Shown: positions 21,501 through 30,500 of the stretch, piece after piece
How positions within the stretch are numbered: position 1 is the stretch's first letter
Layout: every line of letters starts with the position of its first letter
Assembly (NCBI GenBank): GCA_951406725.2
Contig: OX597815.1
Location: 122,636,001 to 122,700,000, forward strand
Direction of reading: 5' to 3'
Length of the DNA: 64,000 nucleotides
Source of the DNA: Octopus vulgaris
Lineage: Eukaryota
The notes under the pieces: generated by a model
Seen by the model: only the letters and a program-made list of their open reading frames with translations
Database searches by the model: none
Told to the model about the DNA's origin: nothing
Made by a program: the position numbers and the translations under genes

Positions 21501-24500
21501 AAAAGGAAGTAAGAGGAAGAGAGAAATAAGTAGATCTCTAGTGGCTAAACCTCACAAAAGGACATAACAAATGACTGCAACAAATGACTAGCCACAGACC
21601 CTGTAAAGGCTCATCCAACTCAGCAAGTAGGAGTAAATGGACATGTTGGTGATAGTGGTTGCAGTGATAATGATGATGATGCTTTTAAAGTAAATTCTAC
21701 TACATACTGAGAGTATATCAAGAATAATGAGAATATAACAAGAATTAGATTTTTAGATTCAAAAACCAGCTACCACATTTGAAAATATTAAATTATATAT
21801 ATATTATGAAATAATTCAAATATAAAATAAATGCATTTATATATGATATGTTCAAATTTAAGCATTGTTATGTATAGCAACTATCTAGTTTATGTCAGTT
21901 TATGCAACGCTTATTAACTACCATATCATGCTTTAATTCACAGTACTCAAAACTAAATTGCAAAATCAAAAGAAAAACATTTTATAAAAACAATATCCAA
22001 GTATAAAGAAAATTCAAAATGGGTGAACATGAAATAAAAAACAAAGTTTATTGAAGTTTTTTATTGCAATGTACATACACACACACACACACACACACAC
22101 ATAATATATGTGTATTCTTTCTTTTTTATTCTTATATTTATTTCAGTCATTTGACTGAGGCAATGCTGGAGCACTGCCATTAGTCAAGTAAATTGACCCC
22201 AGGACTTATTCTTCGTAAGTCTAGTACTTATTCTATCAGTCTCTTTTGCCAAACTGCTAAATTACATGGACGTAAACACACCAACATCAGTTGTCAAGCG
22301 ATGGAGGAGGGACAAACACAGGCACACTAACATATATATATATATATATATATACAACAGGCTTCTTTCAGTTTCCATCTACCAAATCCACTCACAAGGC
22401 TTTGGTTGACTCAAGGCTATAGTAGAAGACATTTGCCCAAGGTGCCACGCAGTGGGACTGAACCCAGAACAATGTGGTTGGTAAGCAAGCTACTTACCCC
22501 ACAGCCACTCCTGTGCCTAATACACACACACACACACACAGAGAATAACTTGAATCAACAAGAGACAAACAGAGAAAACTCAATACACAGAAAAGTAATT
22601 ATTTTGATATAGATTTCAAGATGGTAAAACCGAATAGCATAATATTCAGGATTATTAAGTCTCAAAAGGACTGTTTAGGTAGTGTCTATACCACTATTTC
22701 CATTTCATTTCAAACCTTCATGAAACGAGTGACCAGTTTCTGTTATGCACCATCTAAAGCAATATAAGAGTGATACTTTATGGCTAGTTTATTGAGATTA
22801 TTTTCTTTAGCTGGCAATGAAGTAACTAGTGCTGAGTAACTTAAATAGGTCTTTTTAATTTTTACAATGTTGGAAGCAGAGAATGGGATGGGTAGTCTCA
22901 TATGTCTATGAATCAGATATAAATGAGTGAACTGTGACCGCTTTTGCTTAATTTTGTTGCATGAAAGATTTCAGAATTTTAATAAATACTTGTCAAAATG
23001 GTAGTATCTACCACAAAATTCTAATAGCACGTTTAAATACTTAAACAATAATGAACAGCATTAAAGTGTCAATTAAGTATTTAAACATAGAATCAGAACC
23101 TTTGACAGATGCACCAACTTTAGTAAGTACCTTTTAGCTTGACTACTTATAACTAAATGATACTGTTCCAAATAATCTTATTAAATTTTCCAGTTCACCT
23201 ATAAAGTGCTCAATACTGTCTGCCCCCAAAAGAAATGATTCCAACAAGCTAGCTATGAATTGTTCCTCCTTACATTACATTGAGTTTAACAGGAATCTAA
23301 TGAAATATTTGTCTTTCAGAATTTTGAAATGGAATGGAGATGTACTGGTATATAAATCTATTTAAATGATCCTATTGAAACATAATAAATCTGGATATTC
23401 TTATGCTATTCCACTGGTGAAACTTTAACAATTGTAACCATCCTGAAAGCAATATTAAATAATATATATATATACACACATTCCAAACCAACAAACCAAA
23501 TATATATACAATTAGTTTGGAAAATATTATGGTCATCATAAACACAAATAAAACTATGTTATTTCATATTTTTTTATATGAACATGCAAATTTGATTTCA
23601 ATAAATGTAAACTGAATTTTATTAGAAAAAATTAAAAAGACAATGAGATAAAAAAAATCATTGGGAAAAGCCACACATAAAAGAAGCAGTCAATGAAAAA
23701 TGAGAGATCAACATGACTTCCTAAAGCAGGTTGTGAAAGATCTTGAAAGGAAAAAAACTAACTACAGGTCTTGAAAGGAAAAAAACTAACTACTTTAAAG
23801 GGAAGAGTACAGTATTATTTAGTAGGTGAGTTTTCTAAATATATATACTACAGTGAACTAAATAATGCATTACAAAACATGTTACAATTCAGTAAGTATA
23901 CTTTGATATAATAAATCTACTGTTATATAACAAAATATCAATTCAAGCATTCCATATGTTACAATTAATATTTGTTATTTTAGATGTTATAAAAAAAAAT
24001 AATAGACAATTTATAAGAGAAATATTATGACAAATAAGAAGTCAATATAAACTAAACAGTATTCATTCCAGGGTGTAAAAAATGTCAGTTCTAATGCTGA
24101 AATGCTGCACATAGGGAATATATTACTATATTCTGTTTATTCAAATTTGAACATTTGATGTTTTCAAAAAGTCTACTATTTGATAAACAGAATGCAATTA
24201 TTGATGCAACTTTGCATTAAACTAATAATATTAAAAGGATGGAATAAAGTTATGGTTATGGATTTGGAGGGAAACCTGCTTAAGGGATGAAAGTAGCATG
24301 TTTCAACAAGATGGATTTGTTTAATGTTAATTAAGGATCATACAAAATATTTTTCAGCATGAATAGCACTAACATCTAGATCCATCACAATATGAAACAA
24401 ACCTCATTATATCCACTTGATCAACAATTTTGAGCACAGCGCTTCCTATCTCAGAAGCATAGCTAATCTGTTGTACTGGTCCTTCTTCCTGAATTTCATA

Positions 24501-27500: not shown

Positions 27501-30500
27501 ATTTTAAACTGTTGTTACAAAAGCTGATTAATAATTAAATAAGCTTATGAACAAAACTTTAAAGCTTTTCTCATTAAACTTCTATAAAAAAAACTTTCAA
27601 ACACTAGAAAGTATTAGTACAAAGTTAAAATTAGTTTTAAGTATGTTTTAAACAGTTAGCATTTTTATATCAATGAACTATTTCAGATGGAAACAGTTGA
27701 TAAAATTACTTTAGCATACAACTTCTAAGTTCATCTTTATGTCAAATAACAAAAGTTTTCTAAATGTTCAGGTTTAGAAATATAACAACTTTCATAAAAT
27801 TTTAGTAAATATCAGTGAAATAAGACAGTATATGAAAAAACTAAAAAATTAATATATTTTGTTAATTTATTTGAGATGTTTCTATTGTCCTAAAAATTAA
27901 AGATTTTAAAATGTTCTTACATACTTTGTAAAAGATTTAATTTAATTAGAATAGAATTAATATTATGTGTGTCACACACACTTAGTTAGAGTATACTATG
28001 ACACTAAATTAATGAGAGTTAGAGTCATCAGTCTTTAGATATTGTAAATTCAATGTAAATTAGATATTTCTTTTACTTCACCATAGAATGAGTATTTGCC
28101 ATAGTCTGCTACATAAACAAATTATATTTATCAATTTTCAGATTTCATCCAAATTTCTGTCAGTCTCTACAATTTGATGCCAACATATTCAAAATTCCTC
28201 ACATCTGAAAGTGCACATAAACTATATCTAAATCAGTGTAATTTTACACCCACGTTTCCATGCCTGCGTGGGTTAGATAAGTCAGTTCTTATTTGGAGTT
28301 ACTAAGTCCACCACCACTACCACTACTCCACTAATGGACCATGGACCATGTCTCGCTCGTAAATTTTATAAATCAGTATTAAATATTAAAACATTAAGCA
28401 AAAACATTATTGTAGGAAAAGAATTCCATTACAGTTTTAAAGAATGTCATGGAATAAAGAATTTCACAATATTTGAAAAGCACTTATTGAATCATCAATC
28501 TGTAACTAAAATTATATAGTAACAGGATTCACATTTCAAATTTCTTGTTAATTTAACTATTTAATAGTGAAATCAATGATAACTGAATTATGTTAAGTGG
28601 CTGCATGTAGATATGAAAACATATGAGTTAGTAGCCACATTTAAATTTCAATTGAATATTGTTCAATTAACATATCTATTCTAATTTATTAAATTCTCAT
28701 ATAAGAAAATTTTACATTGTTTTTGTATCTTGATGTCACTTCATGTGCTGAAACAAATCTTGTATCTTGGGTGGGTCATTATGCCAATAATAATAATAAT
28801 AATAATAATAATTTCTACTAAAGTCACAAGGCCTGAAATTTTGGTGAGGGGACTAGTCAGTTAAATTGACCCCAGTGTTTTACCAGTACTTAATTTATCA
28901 AACCCGAAAGGAGGAAAGGCAAAGTTGACTTTGATGGAATTTGAACTCAGAACATAAATGCCCCTAAGCATTATGCCTGGAATACTAACGATTCTGCCAG
29001 CTTGCTGCCTTAATAATAATAATAAACATATGCATTGGTTCAATATCACTTCTCTATTCTTAGTCAATCAGTTTAATATCTAACCAATACATTAAACAAA
29101 TGATTGGTTGGTTAGATATTTAACCCATTGATTAACAATAAAGAAGTAATATTGAACCAGCATGCATGTTTATCGTTATTGGCATAATGATTTTCCCAAG
29201 GTGCAACAAAATTTTGTTAACCTACTAACTTATATCTATGTCAAACTAAAGATTACTGTTATTTATTCAGAATAAATAACACCAAACTTCAGATTACTTT
29301 TCATACACCTTGATTTTTTTAAATATCATTTTGTCTATGAATTTATCTACACCTAACTCCTTTTTCTGTGGCATAACCTATTTGTTGTACAAAACCATCA
29401 TCTTGTTGCTCATACTAATAAAAATAGTGGGGAAGAATCCATTATATTTCTTAATGTAATCAAGACAATACTAAATTTACAAGGAAAAGGACAGAACCAA
29501 TGGGATATTGATAATTGTTAATAGAGTATACATATTTAAGTCTATAATTTAAACAGCCTAACAATAATTTAGATACATAAGCCCAATAATAATTTCAAGA
29601 ATCTGCATCACATATTTATCTGTTATGGATTCTTATATGAAGAGAAAGGAGGAAAAAATAAGAAATCCTATTTTCCTCTTTAATCAATTACTTCTCTTTT
29701 TTTTTTTGCAGCTACAAAAAATGTGTAGAATTTGAAAGAATGTGTTTGGAAAATTTTAAATACGAAATTTAAATTACTTTCTATGCAATTAGTGCAAGTA
29801 ATTAAAAAGTGTTTCATTGCCAAACAAATCCTATTTATATTGTATACTTTAACTGTTAGTTTATAATGTGGTAAAACAAAAAGAGTAACAAACATATGAA
29901 CTGAAATAGTTAAACCAACACAAAAAACAACAGCTTAAACTAAAACAAAAACAAAACTGTGAAGCATAAAAACAAGAAGAAATAAGATAAAATAAAAGCA
30001 TGAAGAAATAAAATTCAAGGAAACAAAAACATTTAAAATCTATTTAATAAGAATTAGCTGATTAAAAAAGATTACTAAATAAAATGACTCGGATGGAACT
30101 TCTTTCTGAATTAAAAAAGTGTGTTCATGTAAAAACTCTTATAAATGAAAATCTTTCTTTAGTGGTTGGAATTTTAAATAGAACAGAAGTATCAGAGGAT
30201 TTGTTTGTACTGTTTTAATCAATATATGTGCTATTATATTTTGTTCTCTGAATAGAATTGTAATTTTATTTTTCTTTGATGATTCCATGAGTCATTTTAT
30301 TTACTCAGAACAAATAACACCAAACAAAATATTTTGTTTAAAACTGAACACAACATTCCCAACTAAAGATTCAGTTCGAACCTTCTGAGAGGATCTTCTC
30401 TCAAAAGTCGCAGAGTTGCACTGTCATGTTCTGTTGCATAAGATATTTGTTGAACAGGACCAATTGGTTGAATTTCATATTTGCTAAAGGGAAAAATATT

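Follow-up and report, generated by a model that had tools for sequence, protein, structure and literature searches.

A 26-residue repeat with exons of its own in the likely Z-disc region of a mollusc titin, and its possible role as a docking motif

Introduction

The N-terminal Z-disc part of vertebrate titin contains Z-repeats, non-Ig modules that are differentially spliced, may set the number of cross-links, and bind EF hands 3 and 4 (EF3-4) of alpha-actinin through a helix with a 1-4-5-8 hydrophobic pattern, as described in the passages on Z-repeats in PMC4259493. A short vertebrate isoform, novex-3, arises through an alternative terminal exon and is described at the Z-disc (PMC13649281). 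In Drosophila, the zormin-sallimus arrangement places spectrin repeats ahead of I-set immunoglobulin (Ig) domains (PMC12198301, passages on gene structure). The sections on kettin in PMC3207145 and PMC7039190 place kettin Ig3 near the middle of the Z-disc, propose head-to-head or other Z-disc contacts, not actin binding, for region 1 (Ig1-4), and set the border after Ig4, where region 1 ends and the actin-binding region 2 begins. For the anchoring of invertebrate titin in the Z-disc, those sections only propose the region-1 contacts. Here we describe a 26-residue repeat encoded by single exons of a titin gene of Octopus vulgaris, on the minus strand of contig OX597815.1, positions 122,636,001 to 122,700,000 (64,000 nucleotides, the window, in whose own numbering all positions are given). 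An earlier note on this DNA had pointed to two exons sharing a motif of about 25 residues and had suggested a repeated, possibly alternatively used ligand of actin or alpha-actinin, functionally like titin Z-repeats.

Results

We found that the motif is carried by two intact exons on the minus strand, copy 1 (30483-30382, 102 nucleotides) and the last copy (24501-24403, 99 nucleotides). Both are of phase 2-2 with an AG acceptor and a GT donor, and the last copy keeps an open frame when joined to the donor at 24974. As the earlier note had seen, the two exons share a motif, with 17 of 26 core residues identical; 12 of these 17 are written with different codons. Of the 32 codons compared between the two exons, 5 are the same, a further 12 show synonymous differences only, and 15 code for different residues; the nucleotide identity is 50/96. 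The copy-1 peptide, compared with the rest of the window in six frames, scores 82 (200 shuffles: mean 34.8, standard deviation (SD) 3.0, maximum 44). In the 5.9-kb flanks of the two copies, the shared matches are AT-rich, short, and at most 37 nucleotides long. Thus, the many synonymous differences and unrelated flanking introns described in the note are borne out, and its proposal of protein-level selection is supported, together with the conservation in other molluscs described below.

A third, degenerate copy, which the earlier note missed, lies between the two (29414-29353, minus strand; profile E 9e-7), at a position that matches abalone copy 2. Because its acceptor is of phase 0, an in-frame TAG stands immediately before it, and its second half is eroded, it is likely a pseudo-exon or dead copy. 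Beyond the two intact exons, two single-protein searches of the octopus genome turned up one weak match on C23 (E 0.4), which contains a stop. Since the known middle copy escaped them, these searches are not exhaustive.

Judged by sequence, the gene that carries the motif is the sallimus/zormin-kettin titin (connectitin). Its zormin-like N-terminal part consists of spectrin-repeat exons (63263-56205, minus strand) with weak Pfam spectrin matches below the cut-off, which are colinear with the spectrin region of the mussel titin VDI56857 at 39-75% identity. They are followed by many I-set Ig exons on the same strand, also colinear with the mussel titin, so that spectrin repeats precede tandem I-set Igs as in sallimus/zormin-kettin. 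To place the Igs, we compared them with P0094, a 4824-residue, 34-Ig kettin-like protein that carries no database name and whose assignment to kettin follows from its architecture. The domain at 34949-34336 (exons 34949-34745 and 34468-34336, minus strand) matches the third Ig of P0094 with 92 bits as compared to 50 for the next, and the domain at 33496-32688 (exons 33496-33337 and 32818-32688, minus strand) matches the fourth with 87 bits as compared to 43; both are Pfam I-set matches. Therefore, the motif block occupies the spacer after kettin Ig4. Downstream of the block, a kettin-type Ig (4324-872, exon pieces about 4324-4082 and 1012-872, minus strand) is 47-52% identical to the repeat Igs of P0094, and the order of region-1 Ig orthologues followed by kettin-type Ig repeats is that of P0094. 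By analogy with Drosophila kettin, the block likely lies in the Z-disc end of the mollusc titin.

In other molluscs, we found three copies of the motif in the abalone Haliotis rubra (XP_046554796), two in Aplysia (XP_012936767), and four in the mussel Mytilus (VDI56857), with adjacent tandem copies in abalone and mussel. The last copy stands at the same place, after a proline-rich segment, in all three proteins. Compared with these molluscs, the window is 62-77% identical in copy 1 and 62-65% in the last copy; Ig3/Ig4 reach 55-65%, a part of Ig2 64-78%, and the proline-rich exon between the copies 37-43%. By these figures, the motif is conserved about as strongly as the neighbouring Ig domains. 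An island of conservation of this kind, set in a low-complexity spacer, is typical for binding modules. A tree of the copies (26 columns only) groups the first copies of all four species together, with branch support 92/89, and the set of four first copies ranks 1/48 among one-per-species sets. Copy 1 is likely orthologous, as judged from this tree, to the first copy of abalone, Aplysia, and mussel, and since the first copies group together, the duplication is likely older than the divergence of these lineages. A recent duplication was rejected, given near-saturated synonymous sites and the grouping of first copies across species. The database names 'myopalladin-like' and 'palladin' of P0001 and P0004 are likely wrong, and these proteins would be fragments of the sallimus/titin gene.

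When 1.84 billion representatives were searched with a profile, 53 matches at E<=0.001 were obtained, 46 of them with the strict core. The matches are mostly short (48/53 have at most 175 residues), and the majority have the look of a lone exon whose frame runs on past its borders; signatures of exon read-through recur in 39/46 and 41/46 representative core matches, and phase-2 borders recur in metagenome loci. Nearly all of these matches are unnamed, and they do not establish a taxonomic range wider than abalone, Aplysia, and mussel. A pattern was used to collect 54 distinct copies, not counting duplicates and additional isoforms, and these give the consensus Y-[ED]-I-[QE]-x-E-G-[PF]-V-Q-x-I-[STH]-Y-[VA]-S-[DE]-x-E-x-[GA]-x-L-R-L-V. 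Here G7, V9, Q10, and I12 are fixed in 54/54 by the collecting pattern itself; independently of that pattern, position 23 is Leu in 49/54, position 24 is Arg in 51/54, and position 21 is Gly or Ala in 54/54. Ser-Pro stands ahead of 7/9 copies in the three named mollusc proteins and ahead of both intact copies of the window. We did not find the motif in three nemertean titin isoforms or in P0094; because one mussel isoform also lacks it, the nemertean isoform result does not show absence from nemertean genomes.

Several related sequences were seen along the way. In P0094, the spacer after Ig4 (residues 466-522) holds a short stretch, closing with Y-L-R-H-V, that is similar to the motif's second half, and the profile gives it no score. 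P0007, P0040, P0047, and P0052, from unnamed contigs, hold divergent multi-copy forms inside single long open frames, and P0047 (2123 residues) has many WKPTPF repeats besides. P0056 and its cluster (a Gly-rich repeat protein, mostly JGI/IMG) were rejected as a chance match to half the motif, and L021 was rejected as a chance match likewise.

To follow splicing, contigs of four runs from four studies were placed on 20600-36000; none of these runs is recorded as RNA, and we took them as RNA by guess; the contigs join exons at GT-AG sites. In all four runs, the joints lead from 32688 to a linker exon (31460-31391, minus strand; 70 nucleotides, phase 1 to 2), which ends in Ser-Pro just ahead of copy 1, then to copy 1 (30483-30382) and on to 25330, so that joints 31391/30483 and 30382/25330 are present in 4/4. 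Thus, copy 1 is spliced in every run, and the middle copy is skipped by the 30382/25330 joint in every run; the X1 contig that covers the middle copy has no listed indel there. The exon entered at 25330 (25330-24974, minus strand) is proline-rich and PEVK-like (357 nucleotides, phase 2-2, 56% P/E/V/K) and ends in Ser-Pro-Pro before the last copy, and when the exons of the block are joined, a single frame stays open through the last copy. None of the 15 joints listed (of 109) leads into the copy at 24501, so we only infer splicing of the last copy. One X5 contig terminates exactly at the 24974 donor, as a branch would; the low or zero depth of X12 and X14 over the 24501 exon was not taken as evidence.

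Contigs of X5, X12, and X14 read past the 24974 donor and end at 24791, 24793, and 24797, 12-18 nucleotides behind an AATAAA. This read-through segment (24973-24791, minus strand; stop at 24894-24892, AATAAA at 24814-24809) is the likely terminal exon of a short isoform with one copy, at which the contig ends hint weakly. The last copy lies downstream of this likely alternative 3' end. Intronic polyadenylation at 24973-24791 would likely yield a short spectrin-Ig titin isoform that recalls zormin or novex-3. Among eight annotated mussel isoforms, six have four copies, one has three, and one has none. Alternative use, which the note had thought possible, is thus supported by the mussel annotation and by the likely alternative 3' end in the window. 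The examined exons of the block are of phase 2-2, except the dead copy and the first linker, and therefore any of them could be skipped in frame. In the mussel titin isoforms P0070-P0071, alternatively included units of ~45 residues with the words PPWV and YETSV follow the last motif copy.

We then asked whether the motif belongs to a known family. No Pfam model matches either motif exon; across 44 members the best Pfam E is 0.03, with no titin model. By sequence, the PDB gave nothing under E 0.066 and no titin chain or Z-repeat at E up to 10; the best PDB match, a stretch of ribosomal protein uS8, was taken as chance. The possibility that the motif is a fragment of an Ig was rejected, as a 56-copy profile scores below 0 bits everywhere in the mussel titin outside the four copies, in keeping with the repeated non-Ig module of the earlier note; in the Aplysia titin, this profile finds the two motif copies only. 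The 1-4-5-8 pattern of Z-repeats is present in 4/54 copies, as compared to a mean of 12.0 (SD 3.2) in shuffles. Motifs I and II of the kettin spacers (IXXXQH(P/E) and IQXLE) are present in 0/54 copies, as is the nebulin motif SDxxY. The sequence tests thus lend no support to a Z-repeat-like ligand of alpha-actinin or to an actin-binding spacer of the kettin type, and the likeness to Z-repeats holds for position in the likely Z-disc region and for splicing, not for sequence. Our literature searches listed no paper that describes the motif, within a scope that excluded subscription work on crayfish connectin and on isoforms of Sls. While the gene and alternatively spliced Z-disc repeats are already known, this repeat appears to be undescribed and unrelated to them in sequence.

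In the AlphaFold2 model of the abalone protein, copy 1 has strands at motif positions 10-12 and 23-25, and copy 3 has bridges at positions 10 and 25, in the same register; the two segments would pair. Beta propensity exceeds helix propensity at positions 9, 12, 14, 15, 22, 23, 25, and 26, which flank an S/D/E/T-rich stretch at 16-20. From these predictions, a hairpin is likely. A fold search with the low-confidence single-copy model gave no match, and the ESM Atlas, searched by features, gave no usable match for the abalone tandem or P0007.

Other features of the window lie outside the motif exons. The exon at 25330-24974 holds an SV[AS][ED]A[KR]xxF element that abalone, Aplysia, and mussel share with the window; in the model of the abalone P0001 it is a predicted short helix (residues 531-537). 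Pfam gave no match on this exon, and the element may resemble Xin-type actin-binding repeats. A candidate second proline-rich exon (11731-11498, minus strand; 234 nucleotides, phase 2-2, 65% P/E/V/K) lies outside the read-covered stretch, and a candidate non-Ig exon lies at 10398-10279 (minus strand; 120 nucleotides, phase 2-2); both were called from splice signals and frame only. By eye, we recognised reverse-transcriptase-like open frames of the long interspersed nuclear element type within an intron at 2234-3904 (plus strand), and two inverted GIY-YIG-like open-frame copies of a putative Penelope-type element within an intron at 61176-62064.

Discussion

The reading we favour is that the motif is an ancient exon-encoded 26-residue repeat, predicted to be disordered alone, that likely docks as a beta-hairpin on an Ig-fold partner in the Z-disc, most likely the N-terminal Igs of a neighbouring titin, or filamin; we give it a probability of about 0.4. 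A conserved, disordered, and repeated hairpin beside Z-disc Igs suggests coupled folding on the edge of a partner beta-sheet. The hairpin would pair with the edge strand of the partner Ig fold, cassette splicing in phase 2 and the alternative 3' end would set the number of cross-links per titin, and the Ser-Pro upstream of most copies may act as a phosphorylation switch. The motif is likely a docking site, and its number per molecule would be set by alternative splicing. For Drosophila, the pull-down results in PMC5521747 report that filamin Ig19-22 pulls down Sls. When we predicted the complex of copy 1 with a repeat of class A from the octopus filamin, made without alignments, the score was 0.02 as compared to a mark of 0.34, which counts neither way. 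The octopus filamin gene lies at G000:C15:14200079-14261379 (minus strand), with further filamin-repeat clusters on C15, C19, C9, C12, and C13.

Several results weigh against docking as a hairpin. The AlphaFold2 strands lie almost wholly in segments with a predicted local distance difference test (pLDDT) value <50, the single-copy model has no secondary structure, and in the single-chain abalone model the copies are not confidently ordered despite the presence of three Igs and two other copies. At 392-403, that model also has a helix, which runs from the end of copy 1 into the beginning of copy 2. The hydrophobic moment, calculated on a scale that counts Tyr as polar, favours a helix at positions 8-15 (1.55 at 100 degrees as compared to 0.47 at 170) and at positions 20-27 (1.40 as compared to 1.12). 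The Z-disc position of the motif is carried over from insects. Finally, one mussel isoform lacks the whole block, so the block is not needed in every isoform.

We considered whether the copies instead associate with one another, zipping in cis or between titins, or forming a three-stranded unit that gives the PEVK-like spacer a reversible mechanical element. Consistent with this are three stretches prone to beta structure (1-3, 9-15, and 22-26) and the adjacent tandem copies in abalone and mussel, and the Atlas structures closest to the abalone tandem belong to beta-sheet families (all with a template modelling (TM) score <0.5 by query); however, AlphaFold2 gives no confident order to three copies in one chain and the likely short isoform of the window holds a single copy, and we consider self-association improbable. 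We see little chance, too, that the motif serves as a beta-zipper or linear ligand for some non-Ig protein of the Z-disc or of signalling, for example Zasp, a kinase adaptor, or a protein with LIM domains, and that phosphorylation of the Ser-Pro upstream gates the binding. The Ser-Pro ahead of most copies in the named proteins and the disordered context would fit such a ligand, and LIM domains bind extended peptides, but Pfam and the PDB hold no sequence match to one, and nothing indicates a particular partner.

A convergent Z-repeat, in which the motif forms an amphipathic helix that binds alpha-actinin EF3-4, is quite unlikely. Repeated, alternatively used modules near the N-terminal Z-disc Igs do recall vertebrate Z-repeats, the moment at 8-15 is helical, and a kettin Ig with its spacers is reported to bind alpha-actinin (PMC3207145, passages on binding). 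But the 1-4-5-8 pattern is rarer than in shuffles, no Z-repeat is matched in the PDB, and the motif has Gly-Pro before the first half, Gly or Ala opening the second, and mostly beta-branched or aromatic residues. In the octopus genome, the EF3-4 part of alpha-actinin is split by an intron. Direct binding to F-actin, extending the kettin actin-binding array into the Z-disc, is equally unlikely: the motif does lie where kettin region 1 gives way to the actin-binding region 2, and kettin spacers bind actin (PMC3207145, same passages), but no copy has a kettin spacer or nebulin motif, the copies are irregularly spaced among proline-rich segments, and the SVAEAKxxF element of the neighbouring exon, by its putative resemblance, looks the likelier actin ligand.

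The motif is a short, defined, and conserved candidate ligand right behind region 1 in molluscs, with natural isoforms that differ in copy number, and as it can be prepared as a peptide, it is directly testable. The motif defines a repeat family missing from Pfam and helps to name mollusc titin fragments labelled palladin or myopalladin-like. It is conceivable, though on balance unlikely, that mollusc titin has a built-in, exon-shuffled beta-hairpin cross-linker that ties titin N-termini together or to filamin, both in Z-discs and in dense bodies, with 0-4 spliced copies tuning Z-disc thickness and strength between cross-striated, obliquely striated, and catch muscle; a single chain would then do the work that telethonin and Z-repeats share in vertebrates. 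If it is a true cross-linker, the motif would be a separately evolved answer to the task that vertebrates meet with Z-repeats.

As compared to known systems, the gene resembles Drosophila Sallimus (zormin and kettin) and crustacean I-connectin, as far as the published passages describe them, in its spectrin repeats followed by I-set Igs and in Igs that match Ig3/Ig4 of the kettin-like P0094. P0094 has a 57-residue spacer after Ig4 without the motif, whereas the mollusc spacer is an expandable block of motif and proline-rich exons. Like the vertebrate Z-repeats of the passages cited above, the mollusc motif is a non-Ig repeat of the likely N-terminal Z-disc region with differential splicing; in contrast to them, it gives no sequence match, fails the 1-4-5-8 test, has copies separated by proline-rich exons, and has a 26-residue core, shorter than the Z-repeats of about 45 residues. 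The likely read-through terminal exon at 24973-24791 can be likened in isoform structure to that of novex-3; here the short end adds only ~28 residues and lies within the block of repeats. Telethonin hairpins and filamin Ig ligands bind by beta-strand addition to Ig folds, and the mode predicted for the motif is alike, with a short disordered segment that would add strands to an Ig-fold sheet at the Z-disc. In contrast to those ligands, to which the motif has no PDB match at E up to 10, the mollusc module is built into titin itself.

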